From: a virus
IMG/VR virus record: IMGVR_UViG_3300030329_006034
Location: 1-64,000 of that record
Reading direction: 5' to 3' (one strand)
DNA: 64,000 nucleotides
In this document: piece by piece, positions 3,603 through 52,598 of the stretch
Layout of the letters: every line of letters starts with the position of its first letter
Position numbering within the stretch: position 1 is the stretch's first letter
Program-made: the position numbers and the translations under genes
The notes under the pieces: model-generated
What the model was told of the DNA's origin: nothing
The model's input: only the letters and a program-made list of their open reading frames with translations
Databases searched by the model: none

Positions 3603-3605
3603 ACA

Positions 3606-4328
3606 CTATAAACCAAACTTACGAAATAGTTCTTTCTCTTTTTCCTCTTGATCTAAAGCCTCTTTTTGCTGGCGAACAAGTCTTTCAAGTTCATCAACAT
3701 CGTTAAAAATAGAAACATCCTCACCATACATTTCCCCTTCTGGAGTAACATATTCACTAATAAGATCAATTCGCTGTTGCCCGTCATGTGGCAACTCTAT
3801 AATGCAAGGAGAATCGCCCTTTGGGAAAAATATATCTGCTTCCGGATTTTCCGTATACTGTCTATACAGAGAATAAAAAATATTATCAACTTCTTTAATG
3901 AAATCAACGTCCGTATCTCTAACTCCATCGTCTTCCACACTTTGCTTTTCATCAAATCTACAAAGGAAAATTATATCTAAGAATCTTAACGACTCTCTCA
4001 TTAAGGATATTTGTGATGTTACAAAATCTTTGTCAAAGTCTTTAATGCCTTTTTCATGACACCATAGAGTGTAAGCAATATTATCTAATGGACAGCGATC
4101 ATATACAACTTTAGCTCCTTTATCGTGTTCTTGAACTTGATCGATAAAAAAGCTTAAGATTTTTTTTTGCGTTGGTGTAGTTGTATTTGAAGAATGAGAT
4201 AAATCTTCTTCAATTAAGATATCTCTATAAGTTTTTTCTGGTGTAATATAATTATCCCACGTGTAGAGAAAACTCTTTACTAAAGTTGATTTACCACTAT
4301 TACCTGTCCCTGAAAACGCAATTCTCAT
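3606..4328 (-). CDS. P-loop nucleotide kinase (AAA_28/NadR/dNMP-kinase-like)
   Basis: GTGNSGKST Walker A, YDRCPLD, EDDGVR. Confidence 0.75.
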   Translation of the reverse strand: MRIAFSGTGNSGKSTLVKSFLYTWDNYITPEKTYRDILIEEDLSHSSNTTTPTQKKILSFFIDQVQEHDKGAKVVYDRCPLDNIAYTLWCHEKGIKDFDKDFVTSQISLMRESLRFLDIIFLCRFDEKQSVEDDGVRDTDVDFIKEVDNIFYSLYRQYTENPEADIFFPKGDSPCIIELPHDGQQRIDLISEYVTPEGEMYGEDVSIFNDVDELERLVRQQKEALDQEEKEKELFRKFGL

Positions 4329-4343
4329 ACTATATATATTGCG

Positions 4344-5099
4344 TTACACCTTTAATGCCATATCCCATAAAAGCAAATGAAGTCTTGGTGAAAAATTAAC
4401 ATTCATACCTTTAGCATATTCTGCAACTGCTGCTGCTTTTTCTACATGTTCCTTTCGACTACCGCAACAAGGCATAAACCATATTCGATTTTTTGGAACT
4501 TGAACTGTATTATCGTCAACATATTTACGCCAAATTTCATCAATGTCTTTATCAGATGAAATTACAAATTTAAATCCAGAGCCAACTTCTTTATGCCATT
4601 TTAAAACTTTAGGCTTATAAGATCTTTCCTCCGGATCTCCATTTGAAGTCAGTTTAGGTGATGTTGTAAAGGTAGCATGAAATTTATCAACCCAATCTTC
4701 ATCTGGCTTAATTGTAGCGTTGGTTTCGAAATCAATTACTGGGTGAAAGTCGTACTTATAAATAAACGCCTTTATAAATTTAAGTAATTGTTTCTGTTGA
4801 ACCATAGGTTCACCTCCTGTAAGCTTAAAAATTGCCCCTTCGCGTAATTTATCTACTAGTTTGTGCTTTTCAAAATATTCGAATATTTCGTTAAACGTCA
4901 TTTTATTTTTAACCGACCATGAAATATAAGAATCACAACCATGTGGTGAGTCCTCTGAAGCAAACCCTTTGCAAGTTAGATTACACATTGACAATCTAAA
5001 AAATACAGAAGGCATACCGACGTATTCCCCTTCCCCTTCAAGTGTATAAAATGCTTTATCGTCCGATACTAGTAAAGTTTCTTTAGTACAATCAATCAT
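4344..5099 (-). CDS. queE: 7-carboxy-7-deazaguanine synthase (radical SAM)
   Basis: FYTLEGEG, FFRLSMCNLTC-x11-CDS, LTGGEP, ETN, SPKL, SPRLH. Confidence 0.9.
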   Translation of the reverse strand: MIDCTKETLLVSDDKAFYTLEGEGEYVGMPSVFFRLSMCNLTCKGFASEDSPHGCDSYISWSVKNKMTFNEIFEYFEKHKLVDKLREGAIFKLTGGEPMVQQKQLLKFIKAFIYKYDFHPVIDFETNATIKPDEDWVDKFHATFTTSPKLTSNGDPEERSYKPKVLKWHKEVGSGFKFVISSDKDIDEIWRKYVDDNTVQVPKNRIWFMPCCGSRKEHVEKAAAVAEYAKGMNVNFSPRLHLLLWDMALKV

Positions 5100-5106
5100 C
5101 CTTTAA

Positions 5107-5141
5107 ATTATATGAGTTGCGACGAGGTTTTCAACTAAATA
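5107..5141. promoter_or_regulatory. Divergent promoters: sigma70-like for queE (-) and late TAAATA for phoH (+)
   Basis: Minus: TTGAAA(5134-5129)-N16-TATAAT(5112-5107)-N7-ATG; plus: TAAATA(5136-5141)-N9-ATG. Confidence 0.65.
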
Positions 5142-5150
5142 ATAATACAT

Positions 5151-5873
5151 ATGAGTGTAAAAACCGCGCGATTACGTCGGGCAAGTACTGAACTTGCGGA
5201 AGCATTTAACAAAAACTACATATTTGATTTTAAAATCAAAAGACCGTTTTATTTAAATCCAAAACATAAAGAATTTTATAATTGTATAAAAAACTCTAAG
5301 ACAAAAATAGGATTTGTCGACGGACCGGCTGGGAGTATGAAAACATACATTGCTGTATATGCCGGTTTGGAACTTTTAAGAGAAGAGGCATTTACAAAAT
5401 TAGTATATATTAGATCAATTGCTGAATCAGCTGAAAAGAGTTTAGGTTCCTTACCAGGTGAAATTGATGATAAATTTTCCCCTTATGCCATACCTTTAGA
5501 TGAGAAGGTAGCTGAAATAGCCGGGGCTGGTGTATGTAGTATGTTAAAGCAAAAAGGATTAATTGAAGCTATACCGGTTAATTTTGTTAGAGGTCTTACT
5601 TTTAACAAGACTTTGGTAATTGTAGATGAAGCCCAAAACTTATCTCGTAAAGAATTAACTACAATACTTACAAGATTTGGTAGACATTCAAAATATATTG
5701 TTATAGGTGATTGTAACCAAGCTGATGTTAATAAATCCGGTTATAAGGAGATATTTAACATGTTTAACACACATCAAAGTACCGAAAATGATATATTTTC
5801 TTTTAAATTTGGTACTGCTGAAATATCTAGAAGTAAGATATTAAAATATATTTGTTCTGTATTAGGTACTTAG
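5151..5873 (+). CDS. phoH: PhoH-family ATPase
   Basis: GPAGSMKT, LGSLPG, RGLTF, DEAQN, TRFG, GDCNQ. Confidence 0.9.
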   Translation: MSVKTARLRRASTELAEAFNKNYIFDFKIKRPFYLNPKHKEFYNCIKNSKTKIGFVDGPAGSMKTYIAVYAGLELLREEAFTKLVYIRSIAESAEKSLGSLPGEIDDKFSPYAIPLDEKVAEIAGAGVCSMLKQKGLIEAIPVNFVRGLTFNKTLVIVDEAQNLSRKELTTILTRFGRHSKYIVIGDCNQADVNKSGYKEIFNMFNTHQSTENDIFSFKFGTAEISRSKILKYICSVLGT

Positions 5874-6499
5874 TTACCCCAGCTAGTACCTTCAAACCAA
5901 TTACCTTTACCTTGTGTAACTCGATTACCAACTTGAGCTGCACGTGGGTTATGATCTTGTGGAGCTGGGTCTGGCTCCGGCTTTGGCTCCGGCTTTGGTT
6001 CTTCAGCTGTTTCTTCTTTACCAGCTGTAGTTTCTCCTACCTTTTCATTTGCCTTAATTGTTGATCGATTATACGAAGCAAAATTATCATCATGTTCATA
6101 TACTGTTACACTTTCAACCCATACACGACCGTTTGTAGCTTCATCAACAAAACTATCTGCAGTTTTAAAACACCATTCAGCAAAACGCTCAATACCAACA
6201 CCACCGGTCATAATTCTAAGTTGAGCCAAACCTCTTGCATTTAGTTCTTTAAGTAATTCAATTTCCGGATCGTCGTTAGAAATTACTAAAGTATGATCAA
6301 ACTGCGTTTTATATATATGTTTAAGATCCTTAAGACCGCCAAAATCAAATACCCAGTTGTTATCGTCTAGTTCATTACAAGCAAATGTAACTTCTGCTTT
6401 AAGTTGATAACCATGAATATATCTACAGTGTGATTCTGCTCTTGGTTGACGAAATGCTGTTGAACCGAGCTCAATTAATTTTGATGACGTATGACTCAT
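5870..6499 (-). CDS. queD: 6-carboxy-5,6,7,8-tetrahydropterin synthase with C-terminal extension
   Basis: HCRYIHGY, WVFDFGGLK, FDHT, E; Pro/Glu-rich tail. Confidence 0.9.
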   Translation of the reverse strand: MSHTSSKLIELGSTAFRQPRAESHCRYIHGYQLKAEVTFACNELDDNNWVFDFGGLKDLKHIYKTQFDHTLVISNDDPEIELLKELNARGLAQLRIMTGGVGIERFAEWCFKTADSFVDEATNGRVWVESVTVYEHDDNFASYNRSTIKANEKVGETTAGKEETAEEPKPEPKPEPDPAPQDHNPRAAQVGNRVTQGKGNWFEGTSWGN

Positions 6500-6505
6500 G
6501 TATAT

Positions 6506-6533
6506 ATTTTATAGGAAACCAGAAAAAAATCAA
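6506..6533 (-). promoter_or_regulatory. sigma70-like promoter of queD
   Basis: TTGATT-N16-TAAAAT-N6-ATG. Confidence 0.6.
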
Positions 6534-6585
6534 CTAAGCCGCAAGTGTTTATAGGGGTCTCCCTCGTCCAGTCTCGGTTAATTAA

Positions 6586-7176
6586 TTAGTTGGAAAGCAA
6601 AGTCAACTGTCTCAGCAAATTTTTTTGCGAATAACTACTTAATTGTATTTCGGGATCGACTAAGAAATCATTATACTGTGGCTCTGTTGCTGTAGGTCGA
6701 TCCGACCCACGTCCGCGTCGTCGTTTACCATTCCACACGGTTTGATACTCACTATTTTGTGCGCCAATTATTTCCCATTTTTCTTCTTTATCGTCAGTAG
6801 GGCTAAGAATAAAAAATCCTTGCATAGGTATCATAACACCGTTTCGATCATCAAAAACTTCACCTTTAAAAGATACTTCTGCATGATTACTAGCTAATCT
6901 TCTTTCCCGGCCTAATTTTATTTTATTAAAACGTCGACGACCACGAGCTGAATCTAGATAGTTCCTTAATACCATTTTAGGATTTGTACCTGCTATTTTA
7001 TTATATGTAGTGCCGACTGCTGAACCTACGGCTCCTACAGCTTTAGCTGTGTTAGGCATTAACGCCTTACCTACTTGTCCGACACCCTGCGCTCCCACTT
7101 GCACGGCTTTTTTTGCCATATCGAGCATAGTCGAAATTCCTTCTTCGATAAGCTCTTTTTGACTTAATTTACCCAT
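6586..7176 (-). CDS. Hypothetical late protein
   Basis: 196-aa ORF; TAAATA 5 nt upstream; N-terminus MGKLSQKELIEE. Confidence 0.65.
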   Translation of the reverse strand: MGKLSQKELIEEGISTMLDMAKKAVQVGAQGVGQVGKALMPNTAKAVGAVGSAVGTTYNKIAGTNPKMVLRNYLDSARGRRRFNKIKLGRERRLASNHAEVSFKGEVFDDRNGVMIPMQGFFILSPTDDKEEKWEIIGAQNSEYQTVWNGKRRRGRGSDRPTATEPQYNDFLVDPEIQLSSYSQKNLLRQLTLLSN

Positions 7177-7225
7177 GCTAATATTTAGTCTTGATAATTA
7201 AATTTATAGTATATAATTATCACAT

Positions 7226-7873
7226 ATGGATCGTACTATAATTACAAAATTACCAACGGCAAATGGTAACATGCCTTTAACAGAAGAAGAAAAATTACAA
7301 GTAATTGAAGATGCAGCTGCAGCTTATGAGAAATATCTAGATGCATTGCGAATCGATTGGCGAAATGATCCTAATAGTAGTAATACCCCAAAGCGTGTAG
7401 CTAAAGCTTTTGTGAATGACTTAGCTGCTGGTTGTTATAATGATTTACCTAATGTAACTGCCTTCCCGTCTGATGGTTATGACGGAATGGTCTTTCAAGG
7501 CGGTATACCTGTTAAGTCTTTTTGTTCACACCATCACCTTCCCTTTACTGGTAGAGCTCATGTAGCTTATATTCCATCTAAAGAGGGTAAAGTTATTGGA
7601 TTAAGTAAACTTAACCGTATTGTTGAGCATTATGGTAGAAGGCCACAAATTCAAGAAGGTCTTACAATGCAAATTCATAAAGCTATTGACGAAATCTGCG
7701 AAGGTAACAAAGGAGTTGCTGTTATGATCTCTGCTACTCACACTTGCGCTTGTCTTAGAGGTATTAAACATGATGGTTGTGAAATGAAAACAAGTAGATT
7801 GAGTGAAGACTTCTTAGGTGATGTTGCTACAAGAGGTGAATTTTATCAATTCGTAAATGATTGGCAAAAATAG
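7226..7873 (+). CDS. folE: GTP cyclohydrolase I
   Basis: TPKRVAK, CSHHHLPF, GLSKLNR, RPQIQE, HTCACLRG. Confidence 0.95.
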   Translation: MDRTIITKLPTANGNMPLTEEEKLQVIEDAAAAYEKYLDALRIDWRNDPNSSNTPKRVAKAFVNDLAAGCYNDLPNVTAFPSDGYDGMVFQGGIPVKSFCSHHHLPFTGRAHVAYIPSKEGKVIGLSKLNRIVEHYGRRPQIQEGLTMQIHKAIDEICEGNKGVAVMISATHTCACLRGIKHDGCEMKTSRLSEDFLGDVATRGEFYQFVNDWQK

Positions 7874-41111: not shown

Positions 41112-43421
41112 CTAAGACTGTATAATTGTTATTTCGTTTCCGTTTTCGAGGTTAAAAGTCTCTCGTAGTGGGAGTTGTGAAATTAGTTCTATAAAGTCCG
41201 GTTTATATCTTTTCATATTTTTTTCCCAACGAATTGCCCAACATGAAATAATTGTGTTGTTAATTTCTGCGAAAAGTGGGTATAATCTACACGGAGCCGG
41301 TTCCCAGTCCGGAGCATCGTTTATTTCCGCACTAATGTAATATTTTTCCCAATTAAAATTTTTATTTAACTTAATATTTAATGTCCCTGGGTAAGGTAAT
41401 TCTTCAGTGTATGTAGCTATATCTATTATTCGCGAATTATCATTTCTAACAAACGCTTTAGACGCGCCGCCTGCACCGCTTCTAACTGTCCCGGTATAAA
41501 TTACCTTGGGCTGCTCTAATATAAAATATTCTGATTTTTCTTTTAAAACAGAATATCTTTTTAAGAGATTTTTCCACTTCGGGACATTTTTATGATGTCT
41601 AGTAGGTTGATCATAGCACTTTAAAGCGTTCATTTTCTGTTCATAAACTTCATCTGTTAATTTAAACTCTGTACCGGAGCCATAACCAAAAAATAACTTT
41701 GGCACGTTTGGGATATTTGCTACGACCCACTTATGAATAAATTTATGATGTTTATGACCATATTCACCTGCTTCAGAATGCGTTACAATTAAGTCGTATT
41801 TTGATATCATATCAATTAACATATCTGGCATCTCCAAGGTAGTAGATTTTTTAACTTCGACGAATGGCAGTGACATTGCATTTGTAATACCTAAGGTGTT
41901 TGCAGCTCTAATATAACAAACAGACCGGACTTTATCTTCAATATCAGCAGGAACAGAGCAAGTTAAGCTATCCCACGTTTTATCTGGGTTCGACGCAATT
42001 AAACCACCGGCCCAACATGTTTCATCATCTGGATGAGCTCCTATAACTAGTATTCGCTCCGCAGCATTAATAATATTATTAATTTTTGGTTTTTGAATTT
42101 TGGTGTATACGGTTAACGATTCATAATCATGAGATCTTTTAAACAGCCCTGAGTCGTCTACCAGTTGATGTGCAATTTTACCTTTATTTGATTTTTTAAA
42201 CATTATCATTTTACCGTCATCTTTTAGCATTGTATATAATGTTTCAATTAATTTAATATCTGTCGTTTGCCCGTAGTCCTCAATATCTTTACCTCTTTTA
42301 CTACAATATTTTTTGCTATATTCACAAAGGTGAAAATTCGTAATAATATCAAAATTATTTAAAAAAGGTGCTGTATTTAAGGTATACATGTCCCCATAAA
42401 ATGCTTTATACTTGAGACATAATTCCGGATCTGTCTGTAACATATTCATATATTCCTGATATTCTTTAATCGACGCAGTAATACCTAATATATTGTGATT
42501 TCTAAGATTATCGCCTACCATATGGTGACCACCGGTGCCGATATGAAATATAGATAGATCGCTAGTGTTTAAGGACGCCACGTAATCAATAAAATGCTTA
42601 TCACATGGGCATCTTTTATAATCAAATTTACACGATTTATTATATGTGTTAAATTTTTTAATAGGAGGCGGTATCTCTACATTTTTTTTATTTTTTACCG
42701 TATTTAATACATGAAGCACATCCTTTGTGTGCTTGTCATCAAAAGTCCAATTTTCTTTAATGAATCTTTTGTCTCTTAATTCGTGTTGTTTAGGGTTACC
42801 ATGAAAGTAGACATATCGAGCTGCTGGTGGAATTCCTGCGTCGAAGTCACCTTCGTTACAGTGCTTTTTATAGCTTACTAGTTGACCCGGTGTTACGTCA
42901 TCCCATAGAGCATCTGGTTTTACGTAATCATTAAGCCAGAACATTTCTGAAAACTGACCCTTTAAAAAATATTTTCTGTTATGAATGTCGTCGTTTTTGT
43001 TCTTTAACCACGTATTCCAGACGTAGTCAGCTTTATCTGAATTTAAAGAGACGAAACCATTGCAAAGCTTACATAAACGCCCGGGATTACGAGGGACAAT
43101 GTAAGATTCTTGCCGGTGTTCTATGTCTTCTGGTGACTTAATAAATAACCCATCGAGATCCATTATTATAGCACGTTCTTTAACGATTTCAGGTCTATAC
43201 ATTTCTAACTTGCAACACCAACCTCTTTCTGAGTTTATAAAAGGATATGTTTGAATTTCCGGAAGAAAGCCACTTTCAAAATCAGTAACTACACTTAAGG
43301 TGGAGTCTGGAGACCATTTTTTAATGTTTGAGTAGAGAGAATTTACCCACTGCGGGTTATATCCCGCTCCGAAATCTCGAAACTTAGAGGGTCTTTTAAA
43401 TAATGTGGTTACGTAATTCAT
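41112..43421 (-). CDS. Four-domain fusion: GT-A glycosyltransferase + SAM methyltransferase-like + PIG-L/LmbE deacetylase + CTP-dependent riboflavin-kinase-like
   Basis: GWCCKL/MDLDG/FHGNPK; FHIGTGG/GD/FDII; AHPDDE/GEYGHKHH; GTVRSGAG/PYPGTLNI/IELIS..PLR..L..G. Confidence 0.75.
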   Translation of the reverse strand: MNYVTTLFKRPSKFRDFGAGYNPQWVNSLYSNIKKWSPDSTLSVVTDFESGFLPEIQTYPFINSERGWCCKLEMYRPEIVKERAIIMDLDGLFIKSPEDIEHRQESYIVPRNPGRLCKLCNGFVSLNSDKADYVWNTWLKNKNDDIHNRKYFLKGQFSEMFWLNDYVKPDALWDDVTPGQLVSYKKHCNEGDFDAGIPPAARYVYFHGNPKQHELRDKRFIKENWTFDDKHTKDVLHVLNTVKNKKNVEIPPPIKKFNTYNKSCKFDYKRCPCDKHFIDYVASLNTSDLSIFHIGTGGHHMVGDNLRNHNILGITASIKEYQEYMNMLQTDPELCLKYKAFYGDMYTLNTAPFLNNFDIITNFHLCEYSKKYCSKRGKDIEDYGQTTDIKLIETLYTMLKDDGKMIMFKKSNKGKIAHQLVDDSGLFKRSHDYESLTVYTKIQKPKINNIINAAERILVIGAHPDDETCWAGGLIASNPDKTWDSLTCSVPADIEDKVRSVCYIRAANTLGITNAMSLPFVEVKKSTTLEMPDMLIDMISKYDLIVTHSEAGEYGHKHHKFIHKWVVANIPNVPKLFFGYGSGTEFKLTDEVYEQKMNALKCYDQPTRHHKNVPKWKNLLKRYSVLKEKSEYFILEQPKVIYTGTVRSGAGGASKAFVRNDNSRIIDIATYTEELPYPGTLNIKLNKNFNWEKYYISAEINDAPDWEPAPCRLYPLFAEINNTIISCWAIRWEKNMKRYKPDFIELISQLPLRETFNLENGNEITIIQS

Positions 43422-43987
43422 TCGTATTTTACAATTGTTATTTTATTTCTTATTGATTGTAGCCAAGTTTGTTCGAGCTCCGGTCTATGGAACCGGCTAT
43501 TTTTTTTGCCTCCAGGTCTGCAGGGCCAGGTTCTCGACTTAAGTCCATCAAATCCAAATACTGTAGATGATGCTGGGTGAAAAATAGTCATAAGCGCATG
43601 CACCGTTGTAGCCCCTGTTGTAGGTTCCTTATAAATTAGATTTTTACACTCTTTTACTGCCTTAACCGGTAAGTGATATTCTACGTGTTTTGAACGACGC
43701 GTCGACATTATAAGTGACTTATAATGTCGCCGTTGTATGCTGTTCCAAAGCCACTGCATTTTATATGTTTTTCTTAGTAATGACATCGCACAAATCATAA
43801 TATCTGTGCGGTTTCCGAGACTCTCTGATAGCTCTGGTATAGGAAATTGAAAATTAAATCTAATAACAACGTCGTGTTCATCAATCCACGATCCATCCTT
43901 TTTTTCTATAATTTTTTCACAATTTCCAACAACAGCAACACTTTTCCCATCAATTAAATGAGATGCATATGTTAAATCCTTACTCAT
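43418..43987 (-). CDS. GT29 sialyltransferase-like protein
   Basis: VAVVGN...IDEHDVVIRFN...LGNRTD (sialylmotif L), PTTG...FGFD (S), H-x4-E (VS). Confidence 0.75.
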   Translation of the reverse strand: MSKDLTYASHLIDGKSVAVVGNCEKIIEKKDGSWIDEHDVVIRFNFQFPIPELSESLGNRTDIMICAMSLLRKTYKMQWLWNSIQRRHYKSLIMSTRRSKHVEYHLPVKAVKECKNLIYKEPTTGATTVHALMTIFHPASSTVFGFDGLKSRTWPCRPGGKKNSRFHRPELEQTWLQSIRNKITIVKYE

Positions 43988-44667
43988 TAATACGGGGCTA
44001 ATGAATCTATAGGCTCTTTTCTAGCTATGTTAATTTCTGATTCAACAGGAGAAAAGTTAACCAGGTCAATATTGAGTTTTTCGCAGCTTTCTAAAGCTAA
44101 TTTAAATTTGTCCTTTAAGCGTGTAGCTCCAAGACGGAGAGGATCCGGGGTACTGTACGAACCGTAGAAAGAATCTGCTTCTAAATTTTTGAAGAAGTTC
44201 TCACCCCACTCTTGTATACTTGACTCTGTTTTATTGCAAAATTGATTCTGTAAATTGGGTCTCTTTGCTTGGTTCCACTTTTCAACCTTAGCTGGGTTGT
44301 AGTCGTGATCAAATCCTAAGAGACAAATCTTTTCTGGACGTAGCGACATCATTATCCAGTATAACCCCATAAAAAATATAGTGTACCCGCAATGATGCTG
44401 CGGTGACTTAATATCCCAATTAAAATAATTTTTTGCGTCTTCAGCTGTTTTAGCGTATTCGTGAAATCCTACTTCTGTTCCAAATTTAAATTCACCTGGC
44501 TTAGGCTTTTGTTCTGATGGAAAATCTCCAGAACGTATCCAAGCATCGACTGGGTGATTTCTAAATAACCTCCATGCATTATTTACACAACATACTGCAT
44601 AATCATCAAGACTTACCGCGTCAACGAGTTTGGCTGAATTACCGCTTCCTACATATAATACTTTCAT
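43987..44667 (-). CDS. Sialyltransferase/MptE-like fold protein
   Basis: YVGSGNS, CVNNAW, LLGFDHDY, LVNFS. Confidence 0.5.
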   Translation of the reverse strand: MKVLYVGSGNSAKLVDAVSLDDYAVCCVNNAWRLFRNHPVDAWIRSGDFPSEQKPKPGEFKFGTEVGFHEYAKTAEDAKNYFNWDIKSPQHHCGYTIFFMGLYWIMMSLRPEKICLLGFDHDYNPAKVEKWNQAKRPNLQNQFCNKTESSIQEWGENFFKNLEADSFYGSYSTPDPLRLGATRLKDKFKLALESCEKLNIDLVNFSPVESEINIARKEPIDSLAPY

Positions 44668-45494
44668 AACTTTAACTCTCTTTTAACTTCTTTAATAAAA
44701 TCTTCCGGTATTACATCTTTAAACTGCTCAATAACAAGATTAGTATCTAATCCCACTTCTTGATGACCGATCATATAGTTTCTGAATCGATCTTTAAGAT
44801 CGTTTCGATATGGCACCCCGTCAGGTCTATCAAATCTATGGTTCCATCTTAAGAAAGGCAAGCACATTACTTTCTTACCATGTTTTCTGTATTTTTCATG
44901 AATATACCCCTCTTCACCACCAAACCCTCTAAAGTTAGAATTAAAGCCTAGCCAACTATCTTTACGACATGTAAACAATCCTAATCCTTGCGCTTCTATT
45001 TCAAATGGGTCACTATTAGCATATTCACCTCTTGTATCCACGCCCCATTCACCCCACATATGTGCACCCCACTTACTTAAATTGAAGTGTGTACTATAAC
45101 TTTTTAAGTCATCGTAGAGCAAAGGACCATGTAGTAAATTTCCATCATCTTTCCCACTATCGTAATAATCTAAAAGTTTCTTTAACGCGCCGTTTTCAAT
45201 TAACACGTGACAATCCATTACTAACACGTATTCTGTGTTTGCTAAATCAAATATCTTTGATCGCAATGCTGTGGATTGAAAGTTATCGTATTCAATATAT
45301 GTTGTGGGCTCTTTAATCCAGTTTTTAAAATTATAAAGCGCTTTACCCTGATTAGAGTTAGGGTTGTTATTAATAATAACGAACTCTAGCCTGTCTAGTA
45401 TATCCCTGTTATGTAATCTTGCTGATTGTAAGGTAAAATATGCCCCGTCGTAGTCATCGTATACACATATACCAATAGTAAGTTTGCCTGTCAT
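44664..45494 (-). CDS. Glycosyltransferase family 2
   Basis: GICVYDD, IINN, VMDCHV, GLGLF, FRGFGGEE. Confidence 0.8.
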   Translation of the reverse strand: MTGKLTIGICVYDDYDGAYFTLQSARLHNRDILDRLEFVIINNNPNSNQGKALYNFKNWIKEPTTYIEYDNFQSTALRSKIFDLANTEYVLVMDCHVLIENGALKKLLDYYDSGKDDGNLLHGPLLYDDLKSYSTHFNLSKWGAHMWGEWGVDTRGEYANSDPFEIEAQGLGLFTCRKDSWLGFNSNFRGFGGEEGYIHEKYRKHGKKVMCLPFLRWNHRFDRPDGVPYRNDLKDRFRNYMIGHQEVGLDTNLVIEQFKDVIPEDFIKEVKRELKL

Positions 45495-45507
45495 ACGACA
45501 TTACTTA

Positions 45508-48500
45508 CTAAAACTTTAGAACATTGCAACGAGGTCCTCCTCTAGATTCCGGTGGACATATTGTTGTCGGGGGCGGTGGTGTAGTTACCGTTGTCGTTGT
45601 CACCGTCGGTGTTGTAGTCGGGGTTGTAGTCCGCCGGCGACGACGCGTCGTTGAAGGAATCGGTGGAAAGACCGGATCTCCACCACCGACAACAATTATT
45701 GGGGGCCTTGTAACTGGTGGGTTTGGCGGCCCAATGGGTTGTCCTCCAGGGGTGTCATCCGTTGGTGGGCATGGGCAACATTCGCACATTTCCCAACCTA
45801 AACCTTTATCTTTTGGCTCGAGATCTTTGGTACGAAGCTTTGCTGGCTTCTTTTTATTTTGCGGATTCATTGCAGGATCATTAACATGCATTAAAACGTC
45901 AATTGCTGGATTAAGCATAGGATTAGCATTAACAAAATCTGCATTAATAATTTTAAAACAAATCGGTCGGCATGCTTCTCTACAATCTTCATCAAAATTT
46001 TTCGCAACGTCTTCCAGGCCTCCCTCCCAGTTTTCTTCTTCCTCTTCAGAAATTACACCGTCGTTGTTTGCGTCCTTCTTTCTGTTTGGATCAAATACAA
46101 CTTCACCGTCTTCATTTTTAAACTGCTTTAACCGGTCGCCATCCTTTATATCGCCTATAGTAAGCTCGTTGCCTGGTTTAACAGCATTCCAATTTTCATC
46201 GTTTTCTATTAAACGCTCTCTAGCCAATGCGTCGTTTATATCTTGGCGCGCTCTTTCTGGATCTGCTAATAGGTTATCAAACCTATTTAACGCCCAATCT
46301 GGTCGCTCGAGATCTTCAGGCGGCACGCCACCGTGAATTTCTTGCAACCTTCTCTCTTGCGATAATAAGGTTCGCAATTGATCTTCTTGTTGAGGAGCTA
46401 ACCAGTCCTCGTTTTCAACAATTTGTTGTATAAGACCACCCACATTACCTTTAGCAATATTGTAATCTATTCGTGCCTGATTTAATCTCCCTTGTGCTTC
46501 ATCTAGTTTTTCCTGTGCTGCTTCTGCCCCTGCAGACCCGGCTGGTTCTTCAGCAAGCGCCTCTTCTGCTTTTTTTACCGCTGCCAAGGCATCTCTTCCT
46601 TCTTGTAGTGCGTCTTCAATAACGTCATCAACAAATCCCTCAGCACCAAACGGTGGATCAGTGCAGCAGTATTTTATTACAGTACCTTCTTCCACCTCAA
46701 CCGGAAACTTGTCATTATCAGGAATGCCATCTTCATCTTTATCCTCCAGATCACGTACTATCTTTATACGCTGTATAGTCCACCTACCCGGCTCTACCTT
46801 TATAATTCTTATACCTCTAATCTTCCTATCAGGGTTATTCGGATCAGTAACCTTTACGCTTTCGAGTTGTCTTCTTATTTCTGCTCTTCGAGCTACTGCA
46901 GCGTCAGAATCACCACGTGGAACACTAATATTTTCAGGATCCGACCATTCCCCTTTGAAAGCCGGTTCAAATTTAACAAAGCCGAGATCAACAAAGACGT
47001 TATTGTTTCTTGCTTTCCAATACCAGCATAGATTACAGTTTGTTGGCGGGCAACACGGGCAACATTCACACTCTCTCCATCCGAGTCCTCTATCAACTTC
47101 TCCATCGCCGTCTGTATCGTCATCTGGTAATTCGCCATTTTCTCTAATATCTTCTGACGGTCTAGTATCCTTATTTTGATTTACCCACTCTGCATCATGA
47201 ATTTTAAAACACCTTCTCTTGTCCTCATCAAGGTATTCCGCTTTCCATTGTTCGAGACGTGCCCATAGGTCATTTGCTTGTTCTGGTGTTATATAACCTT
47301 GATTAACAGTGAACTGAACCATCGATCGCGCTTTAAACAGATCATTTTCTAACAACGCACCAGCGACGTCAAACTCACTACGATCCGGATCTTCATCCAT
47401 TCCTTCATGACGAAGTTGGTTTGGAAAAACCCCAGGTGCGAGTCCTTCCGCGTAAGTTTTTGCTTCAAATTCGGGCCCTTCCCAAAACACTAGTCCGTTT
47501 TCTGCTGTCCCGTCAAACGGTCTTAAGTAGTTGTCCCGAGCATTATCCCAAAACCACATTGCTAGTCTTTCTGCTGGAGGCGCGCATTCCGGAACACAGC
47601 ACGGTGTTGTGGTACTTGTAGAAGTTGATGTTGATGTACTCGTACTAGTAGATGTAGATGTACTAGTTGAAGTAGAAGTTGAAGTAGAAGTTGATGTTGT
47701 AGTAGTTACATCATCCTTATCTGGGCAACATTCGCAATATTCCCATCCCCCAGCTGCATGACCGGCTTCGACAGGATTTTCTAGACCATTATATCCAATT
47801 GGTATTTCATTATCCCAGTGTCCTTTACCAAAGCGATCTTCTACTGATTGCTCGTTATCAAATTGATAAGCTGCAGCAACTAGCTCTGCTGGTGATCTAT
47901 CTAAATTTTGTCGTACAAGATCTTCATTAACAATCTTGTAACACTGCCCGTCACTATCATCTAAACACTTTTCCCATTCTATGCCAGCGCTATTATTATC
48001 CTTTACTACAAGTACAGCTGTTGGAGTAGCAGCCCACTCCCCGTTAAAGTCATCCTCTGTTGCCTGCTTTTTATCCGCCCCCGTAGCAGCGAGCTCAATA
48101 TATATATTTTTATAATTGCCTTGTTTTACCTCTTCTTTGGTAGCTGTTTCTTTTTCAAAGTACCATTCACCTTTCGGCGGGCAACACTTAGGACACGGTG
48201 TAGTAGTTGACGTGGTCGTAGGTGGACTCGTAGTAGATGTACTAGTTGATGTTGTGGTTGTAATGTCTGGTTTTCCCGGTGGTTTTTTCTTGCAGCAACG
48301 ACATTCTTTCCACACTGCAGAACTTAAACTCGGATCAATACACGCTGGGTCTTCCTGTTTAGGGTTATAAGATTCAGCAGAACCATCACTATTAGATTGA
48401 CTACTTTCTCGGGAATTATACAGAGCTTCCCAATTAATTAGCCGATAGCACTTTCCATTATGTTTTATAACTATTCCCTTCTTAGCAGCTTTTTCAAGCT

Positions 48501-51500
48501 CTTCCTTATTAATAGTACCATCTTCATTCATGACACCGGGAAAAGCATCCAGAAAATTTCCTTCTGTTGGTGGGTCGCCTTCACCGTCCCATCCTTCATT
48601 TTCGTCCCGGATCTGCCGAACTTCTCCATCAACTTCTGGTCCTGTTCCCACCGGTGCACCTACGTTAACCGGTTCAGTTCTCTCAACTTCACCTGGCTCG
48701 TTAGGATCCGGATCAGCCGGCGCCTCAGGATCCGGATCATCTGGCTCAATAGGCTTGCTCTTCTGCCTTTCGTCATTAATACCGGGTACTGGATCTTGTC
48801 CCGGCACAACGACATCATCTCCCTCGCCCGGCTGGCTCGCCGGTTCGAACCACCTCTCAATCGCCCCGAGTGCGATTCCTATTCGCGCACCATCTTCTGG
48901 AACGTCACGGAATAAACCGCCACTCTCCCAACCATCATTAGGTCTATGAAAAACAAGATAAGGGTCACGATCATCGGCGAATAAACGAGCGTCTAATGAT
49001 GCATTCTTGGCATTTGAAAGTTCTACAGTGATACCCAAGTTATTATCAAAGACAACATCTATAATATTGCCTTTATTGTCCCGAGTAATAGTCATAGGAA
49101 TTCCACGTTCATCGGGCCCGGGAAGGAGAGCCCCTCCAAGAGCGTCAAAACTTCGATGTCTCCATTGGCTCACCCCGAGACCGGGTAACCCTTCTCGGTT
49201 AATCCTCTCAACCTCGGCACCACTTCTTCCAACCAAATGTTGTTGTTCTGGATGTCTAAATAAAACTCTTTCTTGTCGCGATTGTCCTTGGTTACGCACA
49301 TTGCGTTTAGCTTTAGGATTTTGTAACGCACCTGGTCCTCTAACACTAACGGTTACAGGACTTCTTTGTTGTGTGCCAGTTGGTTGCTGTCGTGAAGTTG
49401 CAACTAGTGTATAAGTGTTATCGGCATTTAGTTGAGCGTGTAATTCCTGCGTAACAACTACATTTTGCCCACCTCCACCTTCAAACAGGCCTTGAAAGTT
49501 AGATGCGTTTTGTTGCTGTACCTTATTATAGGCGGTGTAGTTATTAGGTGGTGACGTTCCATAAGTATTAGGCGGAAAAGTCGTACCTGCCTCCTCCGGT
49601 GGCATCGTCGTACTATCCTCATCCGGTGGCATCGTCGTACTATCTGTGCTATAATTTGGTGCAGTATTTGTATTGAGATCTTCTAAAGGATCTCCTGTTG
49701 GTGGGTTATGTGTCCACCCTAACTGCTCGAGCTCTAAATGCTGCTTAAAAGTAGTAGTATATATTCCGTACCCCTCAGCATCATACATGTAATGCGGTGT
49801 AAAGGTCACTTGTGTGTAGACAGGATCATTTGCTGAACTTTGTGACTTTGATGGAGCAGGAGTTGATGGTGCCGGAGCCCGAGGAAACGGCGTTGCCTCT
49901 ACATTTGGATTTGGTGTAGTTGTCCGCGTTGTGGGTCGCGGTGGCATTGTTGGCATAGGCCCGGGCTCAAATGGATCCGGTGTTGTAGGTGCAATCGGTC
50001 TTCTTGTTGTAGTTGTAGTAGTAATAGGCTCCGGAGCTGAAGTAGTAGTAGTAACATCATCGGGCTCGGTCACCGTAGGTGAAACACTTGGCTTACCTGT
50101 TGAGATATCAACTGTGCGCAGTTTATGCACCTTACTATCTGTCTGTACGCTAAGGCTCTCCATAGCCTCATTGATCTTACTCTGTGTTTCAGAATTACCG
50201 TAAAATGGACCCTCTAAATTTGTGGTATGTGTTTCAATTAAAATGGGCGTGTCTTCAGTATATATAAATGCTGGTCCACTACTATCACCCTTTCCTAACC
50301 CTTCCCTTAGATTACCGTCGTACTCATCAGCGTATTCATCTGGAAGAGAGGTATATAAGACCACTTTTTCTCCTGCTTTTCCCAGCCTATTCGCGGCTTG
50401 AAAGCTTACTACTTTTGGAAGTGTTTTTCTCTCTTGATCGATTACAACAACATATGCGCCTGTTAACTCTTTATTGTATCCACCTACCGGCCGTGGTTCT
50501 GGTACAGGGTAGATTTCAGTATTTTCGACCGGTGCATTAAGAATACCGACGCTAATATCTGCACCTTGTAGCGGCTCGACCGCTACGATAGTACGTGTAA
50601 CTCGCTCGCCGCTATTGTTAATAAAGTTAACAGTGTTACCAGGCATACGTAAATCCCAGTGCTTCGACATTACAAAGTGAGTAGGTGAAACTAAAGTTAC
50701 AGCTTTTTTGTACCCGGGCGTTGGATATGAGGGAGCTTTTTCACTAACTCCAGAGAGATTTACCTTGCTATTAAGATCTGGTAAGATTGATAGGAGTAAT
50801 GTGTTTATTTCTTTTGATACTGTATCGTCGGCTGTTGGTTTTTGAAGCCGGGGATCCACCGTGGTTTTATCGGTATCAAAACTATCAACATCTGAAGTGG
50901 TATTGTACGTAGTCGATCCGGATCCGGATCCAGTATAAATACTAGTATCGACAGTAGAATTGCGTACTATTAACTCCTCAAAGGTTATAGACCAGTCTTC
51001 TGATGTATCTACTATAAAGCTATCTATACTATCCGGGTAATAATATGTCGTCCCAGCTGCAGTATCAACCCTAACTCTATTTGGATTCTTCGAGTCGTAG
51101 CTTTCGTAATCTACATCATATGATTCACCTTCATAACCTTTAAAAAAAGCCGACCCTAGCATCGCGAAGTATTTTTTTAAATTCGGGCCTTTATTTAGTG
51201 TTGTGTCTTTGCCAGACTTAGGATTATTCCAGTACCAGGGACCTGTAGGCCAACAGCATGTTGTTGTACTAGTTGAAGTTGAAGTTGACGTTGATGTACT
51301 TGTACTTGTACTAGTTGATGTAGATGTACTAGTTGAAGTTGAGGTTGTAGTAGTTACATCATCACATTCACAGCAAATCTCTATACAGCATCCGCAGCTT
51401 TCTATTAGTAAATATAAGTCTGATCCTGGATCGCTAGGATTTATTCGGGCTGGAATCGCATCATTAATTCCTTGCCTGTCCTTTAGGATGACTGAAAGGA

Positions 51501-51684
51501 AAGGTGTAGTTGCGTTTTTTTTGTATATCTTATATAACGGCCCGCCTCCGGATACTGATGTTATTTTGATCGTTCCCTCTTTACAATTACACTCGTATTT
51601 TACCGTTACTGTGTCATTAGAACATTGTCCGGGATTGCTGTTACAATCACTACTCGAGTTACTAGCTGAACTATCATTAGCCAT
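45508..51684 (-). CDS. Giant Cys-rich, mucin-like (Thr/Ser/Pro) protein with trypsin-like serine protease domain; probable virion protein
   Basis: 2058 aa; (TS)n tracts; four CC..W[YF][WF]...C[YF][KR]...W..C.CC modules; TLVSPTH...H, DISVG, GDSSGP. Confidence 0.75.
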   Translation of the reverse strand: MANDSSASNSSSDCNSNPGQCSNDTVTVKYECNCKEGTIKITSVSGGGPLYKIYKKNATTPFLSVILKDRQGINDAIPARINPSDPGSDLYLLIESCGCCIEICCECDDVTTTTSTSTSTSTSTSTSTSTSTSTSTSTSTTTCCWPTGPWYWNNPKSGKDTTLNKGPNLKKYFAMLGSAFFKGYEGESYDVDYESYDSKNPNRVRVDTAAGTTYYYPDSIDSFIVDTSEDWSITFEELIVRNSTVDTSIYTGSGSGSTTYNTTSDVDSFDTDKTTVDPRLQKPTADDTVSKEINTLLLSILPDLNSKVNLSGVSEKAPSYPTPGYKKAVTLVSPTHFVMSKHWDLRMPGNTVNFINNSGERVTRTIVAVEPLQGADISVGILNAPVENTEIYPVPEPRPVGGYNKELTGAYVVVIDQERKTLPKVVSFQAANRLGKAGEKVVLYTSLPDEYADEYDGNLREGLGKGDSSGPAFIYTEDTPILIETHTTNLEGPFYGNSETQSKINEAMESLSVQTDSKVHKLRTVDISTGKPSVSPTVTEPDDVTTTTSAPEPITTTTTTRRPIAPTTPDPFEPGPMPTMPPRPTTRTTTPNPNVEATPFPRAPAPSTPAPSKSQSSANDPVYTQVTFTPHYMYDAEGYGIYTTTFKQHLELEQLGWTHNPPTGDPLEDLNTNTAPNYSTDSTTMPPDEDSTTMPPEEAGTTFPPNTYGTSPPNNYTAYNKVQQQNASNFQGLFEGGGGQNVVVTQELHAQLNADNTYTLVATSRQQPTGTQQRSPVTVSVRGPGALQNPKAKRNVRNQGQSRQERVLFRHPEQQHLVGRSGAEVERINREGLPGLGVSQWRHRSFDALGGALLPGPDERGIPMTITRDNKGNIIDVVFDNNLGITVELSNAKNASLDARLFADDRDPYLVFHRPNDGWESGGLFRDVPEDGARIGIALGAIERWFEPASQPGEGDDVVVPGQDPVPGINDERQKSKPIEPDDPDPEAPADPDPNEPGEVERTEPVNVGAPVGTGPEVDGEVRQIRDENEGWDGEGDPPTEGNFLDAFPGVMNEDGTINKEELEKAAKKGIVIKHNGKCYRLINWEALYNSRESSQSNSDGSAESYNPKQEDPACIDPSLSSAVWKECRCCKKKPPGKPDITTTTSTSTSTTSPPTTTSTTTPCPKCCPPKGEWYFEKETATKEEVKQGNYKNIYIELAATGADKKQATEDDFNGEWAATPTAVLVVKDNNSAGIEWEKCLDDSDGQCYKIVNEDLVRQNLDRSPAELVAAAYQFDNEQSVEDRFGKGHWDNEIPIGYNGLENPVEAGHAAGGWEYCECCPDKDDVTTTTSTSTSTSTSTSTSTSTSTSTSTSTSTSTTTPCCVPECAPPAERLAMWFWDNARDNYLRPFDGTAENGLVFWEGPEFEAKTYAEGLAPGVFPNQLRHEGMDEDPDRSEFDVAGALLENDLFKARSMVQFTVNQGYITPEQANDLWARLEQWKAEYLDEDKRRCFKIHDAEWVNQNKDTRPSEDIRENGELPDDDTDGDGEVDRGLGWRECECCPCCPPTNCNLCWYWKARNNNVFVDLGFVKFEPAFKGEWSDPENISVPRGDSDAAVARRAEIRRQLESVKVTDPNNPDRKIRGIRIIKVEPGRWTIQRIKIVRDLEDKDEDGIPDNDKFPVEVEEGTVIKYCCTDPPFGAEGFVDDVIEDALQEGRDALAAVKKAEEALAEEPAGSAGAEAAQEKLDEAQGRLNQARIDYNIAKGNVGGLIQQIVENEDWLAPQQEDQLRTLLSQERRLQEIHGGVPPEDLERPDWALNRFDNLLADPERARQDINDALARERLIENDENWNAVKPGNELTIGDIKDGDRLKQFKNEDGEVVFDPNRKKDANNDGVISEEEEENWEGGLEDVAKNFDEDCREACRPICFKIINADFVNANPMLNPAIDVLMHVNDPAMNPQNKKKPAKLRTKDLEPKDKGLGWEMCECCPCPPTDDTPGGQPIGPPNPPVTRPPIIVVGGGDPVFPPIPSTTRRRRRTTTPTTTPTVTTTTVTTPPPPTTICPPESRGGPRCNVLKF
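47605..47706 (-). repeat. Coding (Thr-Ser)n low-complexity tract
   Basis: TTTTSTST...TTT with varied synonymous codons. Confidence 0.9.
49595..49644 (-). repeat. 23-bp coding direct repeat (DSTTMPP x2)
   Basis: TCCGGTGGCATCGTCGTACTATC at 49595 and 49622. Confidence 0.85.
51259..51355 (-). repeat. Coding (Thr-Ser)n low-complexity tract
   Basis: TTTTSTST...TTT with varied synonymous codons. Confidence 0.9.
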
Positions 51685-51686
51685 AA

Positions 51687-52580
51687 TTATACAGATCTAG
51701 CTGTTATATCACTAACAGTAGAAATAACAGTATTTTCATTAACTGGTATTTCTGCACTAGTAATTGTTTCGGTTAATACAGAATAACCTACATATCCCTC
51801 TGTATGAAAGTTCTTTAAAAAGAATTCTTTGGCACTTAGGTTAACAGCAGTAGCAGATACAGGCGTTGTAAATGAAAACCCGCAATATATATCATCTAGA
51901 TTACTATAGTTTTCTAATCTAAACCCTAAATCAACGGTCGTTAATGGAGAGTAGGTTGTAGTGTCTGAGTCGTGGTAGTCTATAAATAATTTTTGTCCTA
52001 AGTTTACATATCTAAATCTTAGCGTTCTAAATGTATCCGTTGAAAGAGTACTAAACGATGTAGATATAGCAGAAAGGTGCTCGTTAAGAATAACGTTATG
52101 GTTATAATCTCTCAAGATAAGAGATTCCTTTTTCTTATAATCATACCCGACGCCCGGTCGACTATCACGGCCATCTACGGCGTATAGTCCCGTTGTATCA
52201 AATGCTATTTTTAATAAAACACCGCTTAATGCGTTTTCTTCAACTTCTATAAATTCACCGGCTTCTGTAAGTAAAGAAGCACCTGCTTCTGTAGTGAGCT
52301 TGCCTCCAGATAAAATCCACGCAGGGTCTGAGTCTCCTATATATTGACCCGGTAATGCTGAAATTGGAGAAGATAGAGTAGTTAGAAATGTAGCAAATGC
52401 TAGTTGGTAGTCTTCAGGATCTTCGATGTTAAGTACTTCGCTATTTGTAATAGTAGTTTGTGGTAATTTATACTGAAAAGACCATACTATATCATAATTA
52501 GAATTATATTTTCTTTTTGTTTCTATAAAAGAATAATATCTTGCGTCAGTTGGCAAAGTAATGTCACTAGGGAAAGCCAT
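51687..52580 (-). CDS. Putative L-type (legume/ConA-like) lectin-fold virion protein
   Basis: Beta-rich; AFATF, IAFDTTG, YCGFSFT; LTTEAG/LLTEAG insert; late promoter. Confidence 0.5.
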   Translation of the reverse strand: MAFPSDITLPTDARYYSFIETKRKYNSNYDIVWSFQYKLPQTTITNSEVLNIEDPEDYQLAFATFLTTLSSPISALPGQYIGDSDPAWILSGGKLTTEAGASLLTEAGEFIEVEENALSGVLLKIAFDTTGLYAVDGRDSRPGVGYDYKKKESLILRDYNHNVILNEHLSAISTSFSTLSTDTFRTLRFRYVNLGQKLFIDYHDSDTTTYSPLTTVDLGFRLENYSNLDDIYCGFSFTTPVSATAVNLSAKEFFLKNFHTEGYVGYSVLTETITSAEIPVNENTVISTVSDITARSV

Positions 52581-52598
52581 GTACTTATATTTAATTAC

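Follow-up and report, generated by a model that had tools for sequence, protein, structure and literature searches.

The block at positions 41,112 to 52,580 of the analysed window, which is the first 64 kb of the 93.8-kb viral contig IMGVR_UViG_3300030329_006034 from IMG/VR (CheckV completeness 44%), probably encodes a phage system for O-glycosylation of one of the phage's own proteins. The proposed acceptor is a giant polypeptide of 2058 amino acids (aa) with Thr/Ser-rich tracts; the system would be initiated by a GT2-family glycosyltransferase (GT) and elaborated by a cassette of further enzymes. On the minus strand, two tail-fibre genes are followed by two small genes, a 297-aa gene, the giant gene, the GT2 gene and genes for proteins of 226, 189 and 769 aa (Table 1). 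An original prediction, made from the DNA letters alone, had read this block as a virion glycosylation system beside a mucin-like protein. Its core idea, a phage system that glycosylates a T/S-rich protein, is supported by co-occurrence in phages and bacteria and by the GT27-like fold of the GT2; a promoter variant that it had placed before the enzyme genes found no support, and one methyltransferase assignment stays unproven.

The pairing of the GT2 with a Thr/Ser/Pro (T/S/P)-rich gene recurs among related phages. The GT2 was found, at 56–91% identity, in 85 related IMG/VR loci, which dereplication at 95% GT2 identity reduced to 52 lineages, 51 of them with upstream sequence. Their conserved gene order is fibres, a homologue of the 297-aa gene, at least one T/S/P-rich open reading frame (ORF), GT2 and, on the opposite strand, a 77-aa gene. 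The ORF that ends about 8–13 nt before the GT2 (with a few short overlaps) was T/S/P-rich, carried a shared C-terminal motif, or both, in 41 of the 51 lineages, against a background of 18 T/S/P-rich ORFs among 1632 others, mostly tandem paralogues. Lineage L055 departs from this order: GT2 and T/S/P-rich gene are neighbours on opposite strands, with the GT2 inverted, and an ATP-grasp gene of the R2K clade (L055:9180-9998) lies directly before the GT2. The upstream proteins measure 103 to 2431 aa, and eight loci (L048, L061, L042, L047, L052, L060, L063 and L073) contain two or three tandem T/S/P-rich paralogues, each with a Cys...Leu-x-Phe end, beside one GT2. Tract length differs even between near-identical phages, for example 149 versus 215 aa, which indicates that the tracts vary quickly.

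The shared C-terminal module comprises a CC-Pro-rich segment, a run of 10–17 Thr and a terminal C-x(2-10)-C-[NK]-x-L-x-[FYW]. The giant, whose C-terminus is ...TTICPPESRGGPRCNVLKF, is a member of this family, and a homologous module was present in 34 relatives. The terminal motif, in the form C-x(2-9)-C-x(1-2)-L-x-[FY], occurred in 73 of 3300 six-frame ORFs, every one of them either the ORF immediately upstream of the GT2 or part of a tandem array there. Even where GT2 identity falls to 56%, the poly-Thr block of the module is retained.

Bacterial homologues support a peptide acceptor for the GT2 family independently of phage synteny, through poly-Thr neighbours and PqqD-like domains. The GT domain gave 369 genome matches at 45–52% identity in Alpha-, Gamma- and Deltaproteobacteria, Acidobacteriota, Bacteroidota, Planctomycetes and Dehalococcoidia. 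Across the 75 bacterial loci analysed (range L091-L169), the domain lies mostly within multidomain proteins of about 400–1300 aa, and 18 loci have a small poly-Thr or (TS)n ORF no more than 600 nt away, in most cases on the same strand and just upstream. Such ORFs reach a density of 0.238 per kb near the GT domain and 0.034 per kb in the remaining flanks, a sevenfold difference; in their products, poly-Thr or (TS)n comes after a signal-like leader (RR...W-x-KPVV...PAHAA). A scan of eight bacterial proteins showed a PqqD-like domain in two of them; in enzymes that make ribosomally synthesized and post-translationally modified peptides, this domain recognizes the peptide leader. Others carry GT25, Stealth, LicD or cytidylyltransferase domains. 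The adjoining Thr-rich ORF appears to be the substrate, and these loci look like an undescribed leader-guided peptide O-glycosylation system; we know of no published description of bacterial GT/PqqD proteins beside poly-Thr small proteins.

The family call of the original prediction holds for the GT2, and structure prediction further places its fold closest to GT27, the polypeptide N-acetylgalactosaminyltransferases (ppGalNAc-Ts), which start mucin sugar chains in animals. The protein matches Pfam Glycos_transf_2 (PF00535; 2.7e-7, 31.1 bits against a cut-off of 23.3), as do all 51 homologues, in which D94-x-H96 (D94-C-H96), G190-FGGEEG and H219 are invariant. Its AlphaFold model is of high confidence (pLDDT 94, pTM 0.92). 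In a Foldseek search of the PDB, the matches listed (ranks 1–49) were all ppGalNAc-Ts (E ~1e-13, TMq up to 0.75), among them human T2, T4, T7, T10 and T12, mouse T1, Drosophila PGANT9 and Toxoplasma T3. VIA, a Foldseek-independent scan of 48,161 representative chains, likewise ranked mouse GalNAc-T1 (Z 22.5; 258 aa, 3.2 Å) and TgGalNAc-T3 (Z 21.5) above the chondroitin polymerase K4CP (Z 18.9) and ordinary GT2s such as TarS, SpsA and GlfT2 (Z at most 16.6). By both routes, GT27 members are the solved structures closest to this GT-A catalytic domain. The match of the family to PF02709 (Glyco_transf_7C) is weak (7 of 51 members, best E 0.049). We propose that this enzyme is an initiating polypeptide Ser/Thr O-glycosyltransferase, as its modelled fold suggests, and consider it likely that its substrate is the T/S-rich protein. 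The family is large and uniform: marine and other aquatic metagenomes contribute at least 1984 clusters (90% identity), nearly all of about 275 aa, and the cultured-phage collection contains no member.

The giant is the sole protein of the contig that carries tracts of this kind; in addition to those in Table 1, a T/P tract spans residues 2019–2041. Within the tracts, Ser is encoded by TCA, TCT and AGT, and Thr by ACT, ACA, ACG and ACC, and Tandem Repeats Finder detected only imperfect DNA repeats (65–78% matches) in the gene. Because TCN and AGY Ser codons are not silently interconvertible, the tracts appear to be maintained at the peptide level, in agreement with what had been concluded earlier from their varied synonymous codons. 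Five W-x-x-C-x-C-C-P clusters punctuate the protein, and at least three of them, each with a following CC, flank a T/S/P tract; bracketed in this way, each tract would form a loop or stalk held at its two ends. Four relatives share the last 600 residues. The GDSSGP-containing module is 78% identical to its counterpart in L003 and 38–46% identical to those in L011, L012 and L018, where it sits at different protein positions. Its H...D...GDSSGP spacing recalls chymotrypsin-type serine proteases; since the module has no PDB or Pfam match, a protease identity is a motif-level guess. The other segments of the giant are also without a family, and the full protein matched none in Pfam or PHROG.

Most lineages have nothing between the GT2 and the 77-aa gene; in the rest, this site holds unrelated contents. 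Relatives carry a GT6 (3e-22), a GT31/Fringe-like protein (4e-10), a second GT2, or fusions of GT2, GT32 and methyltransferase domains (767 and 923 aa), and another relative carries a trio of polysialyltransferase-like protein, GT2 and sulfotransferase; every cassette gene that was identified in relatives encodes a glycan enzyme. Within this sample, the lineages with a cassette all belong to the marine clade that has large acceptors, a pattern that is not phylogenetically independent. On balance, we lean towards the view that the cassette acts on the same glycan as the GT2.

Two of the three cassette proteins here had been labelled sialyltransferase/MptE-like and GT29-like, and these labels are supported to the extent that both proteins look like CMP-ulosonic-acid transferases. 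The GT42/Maf and GT29 families use CMP-activated ulosonic acids. The 226-aa protein, which has no Pfam match, is modelled at pLDDT 94.7; VIA placed CstI (Z 11.2, 172 aa) and Maf (Z 11.0, 164 aa) first, above kinase-type MptE (8.3), SteA and TPK (all at most 8.9) and GT29 enzymes (5.5–6.3), and CstII was the top Foldseek match (E 1e-3). By this predicted fold it is a candidate CMP-ulosonic-acid transferase, and the ESM Atlas offers a lead in the same direction as the MptE label, with PF01973 on 35% of one neighbouring cluster. Members of the 226-aa family also occur in Enterobacterales records (Enterobacillus, Erwinia and Lelliottia; P0183, P0230, P0236 and P0239) at 43–49% identity. The 189-aa protein matches PF00777 above the cut-off (1e-9, 38.6 bits versus 23), over profile positions 58–180 of 272 only, and ST3Gal-I is its best PDB sequence match. 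Its family is small, with seven clusters found plus a more distant phage homologue in L001. The residues of sialylmotifs L and S (VVGN...G..ID..D...RFN and P..G...GF) are invariant in eight GT29-like homologues; a VS-like H-x4-E is present in most members, and the conserved Cys pair that forms the L–S disulfide is absent.

The terminal gene of the block encodes a four-domain fusion that had been described as GT, methyltransferase, deacetylase and kinase. Profile matches support the GT (phrog_1962) and PIG-L parts (Table 1); the methyltransferase is unproven, and the kinase narrows to a divergent riboflavin-kinase-like domain. Domain 1 matches proteins of Xanthomonas and Stenotrophomonas jumbo phages at 24–27% identity and is the sole part of the block with a cultured-phage match. 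Domain 2 matched Methyltransf_23 weakly (E 0.057), its hhalign comparison with the cassette methyltransferases gave E 0.043 at a probability of 1%, and five stand-alone homologues had no Pfam match. Domain 4 matches archaeal MJ0056 (5e-5) and, by sequence profile, would belong to the same fold family as the riboflavin kinases; it scored 32 bits against the NCBIfam equivalog ribK_Meth, whose cut-off is 168 bits. Each part of the fusion also occurs as a stand-alone protein, and no representative at 50% identity spans all four. Proteins of 863 and 795 aa join GT2, PIG-L, methyltransferase and riboflavin-kinase-like domains in other orders, and in the L001 phage the corresponding parts are three adjacent genes; this recurrence suggests that the parts form a functional set.

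From the gene anatomy, the family and fold assignments and the co-occurrence, we infer a sequence of enzymatic steps, with donor sugars, a location on the virion and a biological role. The giant would be the acceptor, one of a phage family defined by Thr/Ser/Pro tracts and a C-terminal Cys-Pro-polyThr-Cys module. The GT2, a soluble, lectin-less relative of the ppGalNAc-Ts, would put the first sugar on tract Ser/Thr residues in the cytoplasm of the infected cell, drawing on a host UDP-sugar. The three genes that follow would form a lineage-specific elaboration cassette, in which the CstI/Maf-like and GT29-like proteins would add host CMP-activated ulosonic acids, either 3-deoxy-D-manno-octulosonate (Kdo) or acids of the sialic, pseudaminic or legionaminic type. 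The fusion would add another sugar, de-N-acetylate an N-acetylhexosamine and probably methylate and phosphorylate the glycan. The product would be a mucin-like glycoprotein borne at the tail-fibre end of the particle. Maf enzymes are described as O-linking nonulosonic acids, and experimentally also Kdo or N-acetylneuraminic acid, to flagellin Ser/Thr in the cytoplasm (PMC4065374, PMC11339370, bioRxiv 10.1101/2020.06.03.131540); the Maf-like 226-aa protein could therefore attach ulosonic acids directly to Ser/Thr and so be not a capping enzyme but a second initiator. Because the contig carries no ulosonic-acid synthesis gene, it is economical to suppose that the donor, for instance CMP-Kdo, comes from the host.

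Several observations weigh against this interpretation. All phage loci are syntenic relatives, so the adjacency of GT2 and T/S-rich gene is not independent evidence and could reflect inheritance. About 10 of the 51 lineages have the GT2 without a T/S-rich gene, either right after the 297-aa homologue, inverted or in another context; L010 and L080 have it in other contexts, and in the L001 phage it is fused. A profile of the C-terminal module found no match elsewhere in four contigs that have the GT2 and no T/S-rich gene, which are 14–38% complete, nor in L001, L010, L080 and L086; all of these contigs are fragments. Conservation together with the T/S-rich gene is confined to the GT2; the remaining three genes are one of many interchangeable cassettes, and L001 encodes homologues of the GT29-like gene and of fusion domains 2–4 far from any T/S-rich protein. 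The co-occurrence test set out in the original prediction was passed by its core idea, through the GT2; the independence that had been named as a possible refutation is found in L001 for the GT29-like gene and fusion domains 2–4. Searches with phmmer and with a 51-sequence profile against all PDB sequences reach TarP and TarS and no GalNAc-T. The GT2 has neither a ricin lectin domain (no Ricin_B Pfam match) nor a membrane anchor, its catalytic fold spanning all 276 aa; for these reasons, we describe it as working like a ppGalNAc-T and do not file it in GT27. At the thresholds used, a poly-Thr neighbour accompanies only 18 of the 75 bacterial loci. The 93.8 kb contain no member of the NeuB, CMP-sugar synthetase, NAD-epimerase or NTP-transferase families, an absence that is uninformative because the contig is only 44% complete.

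These points give some room to an explanation in which the GT2 glycosylates a phage protein and the 226-aa protein, the GT29-like protein and the fusion act elsewhere, on host lipopolysaccharide or capsule (for example to block superinfection) or on phage DNA, having landed in a permissive site. The hotspot character of the GT2/77-aa interval fits this explanation, as do the L001 phage, whose 128-kb contig combines GT29-like and fusion domain 2–4 homologues with no T/S-rich module, and the occurrence of the 226-aa family in Enterobacterales genomes. The phage has other GTs together with 7-deazaguanine genes at 643-7873, and viral GTs that hypermodify DNA are known (cited in PMC12619734). Against this stands the arrangement of the cassette genes, which overlap the GT2 and each other by 1–4 nt with no promoter-like box of their own; every cassette identified in relatives is made up of enzymes that build or decorate glycans, which is what the elaboration of one glycan would call for, and within the sample cassettes accompany only large T/S-rich proteins, with the phylogenetic dependence noted above. 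We regard this explanation as unlikely. The L001 contig itself is a 128.8-kb fragment (38% complete, estimated at well above 300 kb in full). Its GT2 homologue (L089:883-2358) is fused to a C-terminal domain with an RNPYDR motif that is sulfotransferase-like at the motif level only, and it lies among non-structural genes, about 85 kb from the homologues of the fusion parts.

Somewhat less probable still is that the T/S/P tracts are unglycosylated flexible spacers or length-variable stalks and that the GT2 acts on the 297-aa protein, the fibres or a non-protein acceptor. The GT2 does persist beside the 297-aa gene in eight lineages that have no T/S-rich gene (L006, L007, L038, L041, L053, L083, L025 and L029), the fibre proteins are themselves 22–30% S/T/P, and similarity of fold is no proof of acceptor. 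The acceptor role of the tracts is favoured over this explanation by the PqqD-fused bacterial homologues that adjoin poly-Thr precursor-like ORFs, by the mixture of AGY and TCN Ser codons in the tracts, and by retention of the C-terminal poly-Thr block at the lowest GT2 identities sampled.

It is reasonably probable that the giant is part of the virion. That the glycosylated giant is instead a late soluble or released decoy, or a matrix glycoprotein freed at lysis, is improbable: it has no recognisable fibre, collar or baseplate attachment domain and its family's size spread is unusual for a fixed structural part, but dozens of lineages place a T/S/P-rich gene where the fibre operon ends, the conserved C-terminal Cys module could be an anchor, and the giant has no signal peptide or transmembrane segment.

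The proposed system resembles and departs from several known ones. Relative to ppGalNAc-Ts (mouse GalNAc-T1, 8v9q; human GalNAc-T2, 2ffu; Toxoplasma GalNAc-T3, 8uhv), the phage GT2 is alike in whole-length fold, and its gene adjoins that of a Thr/Ser-rich acceptor-like protein; its D-x-H with a later His and its GGE-type motif may correspond to the Mn2+ site and the WGGEN-like Gal/GalNAc-T motif of those enzymes. It differs in its length of 276 aa, its lack of a ricin-type lectin domain or anchor, its expected action in the cytoplasm and its 12–16% identity. The 226-aa protein has Maf (MptE-like/DUF115; Magnetospirillum, 5mu5) and Campylobacter CstI/CstII (GT42) as its best structural matches, but it is much smaller than Maf (226 versus ~630 aa) and has no Pfam match and no flagellin-binding parts. 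The 189-aa protein shares PF00777 and sialylmotifs L and S with GT29 (porcine ST3Gal-I, 2wnb), and most members of its family have a VS-like H-x4-E; it covers the profile in part, lacks the disulfide cysteines and the membrane anchor, and is very rare. Bacterial PqqD-type multidomain GTs share the GT domain and an adjacent Thr-rich ORF; their acceptors carry an N-terminal signal-like leader (W-x-KPVV...PAHAA) and their enzymes are fused to peptide-recognition or other transferase domains, whereas the phage GT2 stands alone.

Among viruses, mycobacteriophage GTs are described as modifying the phages' own structural proteins, with glycans on capsid and tail-tube subunit C-termini (Freeman et al. 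2023 Cell Host Microbe, via PMC12619734). The present system is like these in that phage-encoded GTs are proposed to act on an own protein, and unlike them in that it has its own family of mucin-like acceptors at the fibre end, an initiator resembling GT27, cassettes that can be swapped and sialyltransferase-like enzymes. In chlorovirus PBCV-1, the soluble multidomain enzymes A111/114R and A064R build virion-protein glycans independently of host machinery (PMC7826918, PMC9614988). The phage fusion can be likened to them by domain layout, since it joins GT and sugar-modifying domains in one virus-encoded soluble protein; unlike it, the chloroviruses infect eukaryotes and N-glycosylate a capsid protein, and the phage domain set is GT, an unnamed family, PIG-L and riboflavin-kinase-like. 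Our literature search found no paper describing the pairing of acceptor and GT2. The system differs from each known one in combining a mucin-like family of dedicated acceptors, a GT27-like initiator that stands alone, exchangeable cassettes and, in this phage, two enzymes that resemble sialyltransferases.

Phage particles are usually regarded as bare protein, and to our knowledge the only demonstrations of self-glycosylation come from mycobacteriophages and, on the side of eukaryotic viruses, from giant algal viruses. A broader picture, which we offer tentatively and rate below even odds, is that a large and widespread group of aquatic T4-like phages possesses a self-contained, cytoplasmic, mucin-type-like O-glycosylation system composed of the acceptor family, a GT27-like initiator and swappable cassettes. 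In the present phage, the cassette would cap the glycan with host-derived ulosonic sugars (sialic-acid-like or Kdo) and then deacetylate, methylate and phosphorylate it. The products might form a lineage-specific 'glycan code' on the particle for adhesion, shielding or host-lectin recognition, and the bacterial kin, acting on leader-bearing poly-Thr peptides in many phyla, might be a prokaryotic counterpart, possibly a relative, of the animal mucin initiators. If so, self-glycosylation would be common in aquatic phages, given the number of enzyme clusters in public data, and would bear on adsorption, particle stickiness and persistence, and escape from recognition by hosts or grazers. The small soluble initiator, the 189-aa GT29-like protein and the 226-aa Maf/CstI-like protein would be attractive minimal enzymes for glyco-engineering, and the bacterial relatives, which point to a class of leader-guided peptide O-glycosylation, may inform the origin of mucin-type glycosylation.

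The layout of the locus agrees with the original prediction: all six ORFs of the block are in place, the operon begins 13 nt after the giant (TAG to the ATG of the GT2), the four enzyme genes overlap by 4, 1 and 4 nt, and the giant lies downstream of tail-fibre genes bearing Collar and Mtd_N domains. Two nucleotides separate the stop of the 297-aa gene from the giant start, and the minus strand of the block contains no terminator-like site between genes. Across the contig, TAAATA stands 5–6 nt before 24 of 100 start codons, a placement that implies late promoters with almost no leader. The claim that a TAAGTA variant drives the enzyme operon is not supported, although the hexamer is indeed located 7 nt upstream of the GT2: TAAGTA occurs near starts four times where about 1.6 are expected, at the scattered distances of 1, 2, 7 and 9 nt, and is neither enriched nor positioned. 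Likewise, the hexamer before the GT2 does not correspond to a T4-type late promoter (TATAAATA, or a TAAATA box at the usual genome spacing). Most likely, the block is the distal end of a late tail-fibre gene string, and its simplest reading is a single late transcript from the TAAATA box of the 297-aa gene, or from further upstream, through the fusion; one shared transcript would be a tighter link between enzymes and giant than a promoter of the enzymes' own. The 297-aa gene, called lectin-like in the original prediction, does precede the giant as described, and its lectin identity is a lead: in the ESM Atlas its structural neighbours are legume lectin/ConA-like at a TM-score of 0.45–0.52 for a low-confidence model, and a Pfam scan gave no match. 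No protein of the block has a transmembrane or other membrane-type hydrophobic segment.

Table 1. Features of the window (positions in nt), with examples of bacterial small ORFs given by locus.
Feature	Position	Strand	Remarks
Tail-fibre gene, 539 aa	53021-54640	-	Pfam Collar, Mtd_N and PHROG tail-fibre families (both fibre genes); syntenic in relatives
Tail-fibre gene, 503 aa	54657-56168	-	See preceding row
TAAATA late-promoter-like box	52588-52593	-	7 nt before 297-aa gene; nearest canonical box upstream of block
297-aa protein ('LEC')	51687-52580	-	Possible ConA/legume-lectin-like beta-sandwich; precedes T/S/P-rich gene in relatives too
Giant, 2058 aa	45508-51684	-	Mosaic; Cys clusters on either side of (TS)n and T/P tracts
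(TS)n tract 1, aa 111-142	51259-51354	-	Between CxCC...CC clusters
Module with GDSSGP motif, aa 275-533	50086-50862	-	Conserved, shuffled among relatives
Thr/Pro-rich region, aa ~535-700	49585-50082	-	By composition per 100 aa
T/S/P tract 2, aa 1142-1163	48196-48261	-	
(TS)n tract 3, aa 1327-1361	47602-47706	-	
C-terminal family module	45511-45786	-	CECCPCPP, Pro-rich stretch, Thr tracts, terminal C-x9-C-N-V-L-K-F
TAAGTA hexamer	45502-45507	-	Inside 13-nt giant/GT2 gap, 7 nt before GT2 start
GT2, 276 aa	44664-45494	-	ppGalNAc-T-like; PF00535
226-aa CstI/Maf/MptE-like protein	43987-44667	-	By predicted structure
189-aa minimal GT29-like sialyltransferase homologue	43418-43987	-	PF00777
Fusion, 769 aa	41112-43421	-	Four domains
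Fusion domain 1, aa 1-228, GT-like	42738-43421	-	phrog_1962 2.9e-24 (aa 15-231); stand-alone homologues ~225 aa
Fusion domain 2, aa 255-442, unnamed family	42096-42659	-	Class-I methyltransferase-like motifs; stand-alone homologues ~180-200 aa
Fusion domain 3, aa 456-635, PIG-L de-N-acetylase family	41517-42056	-	PF02585 5.7e-9, 37 bits vs 28.2 (aa 458-568)
Fusion domain 4, aa 640-767, divergent CTP-dependent riboflavin-kinase-like	41121-41504	-	PF01982 2.3e-10, 40.9 bits vs 25 (aa 667-766)
Nucleotid_trans GT-like gene	643-1335		Cluster 643-7873
Further GT2 gene	2838-3602		Cluster 643-7873
QueE-like radical-SAM gene	4344-5099		Cluster 643-7873
QueD-like PTPS gene	5870-6499		Cluster 643-7873
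GTP cyclohydrolase I	7226-7873		Cluster 643-7873; PhoH also present
Bacterial leader + poly-Thr/(TS)n small ORFs	L091:4532-4903, L104:4609-5007, L163:4564-4905, L101:4085-4558		Examples

The contig carries T4-type replication genes (a gp43-like polymerase, an SbcC-like protein and helicases), and its polymerase is about 31% identical to those of cyanomyoviruses, its best matches among cultured phages. Together, these features indicate a distant, uncultured T4-like phage of about 200 kb. The cultured-phage database contained no DNA or protein match to the block as a unit, to the giant or to the GT2, and Rfam had no match within the window. G+C content is 33–39% over most of the window and rises to 43–47% inside the giant gene. 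At 643-7873, the window contains a second sugar/base-modification cluster with at least two further GT-like genes, whose composition suggests 7-deazaguanine DNA modification, possibly together with glycosylation.

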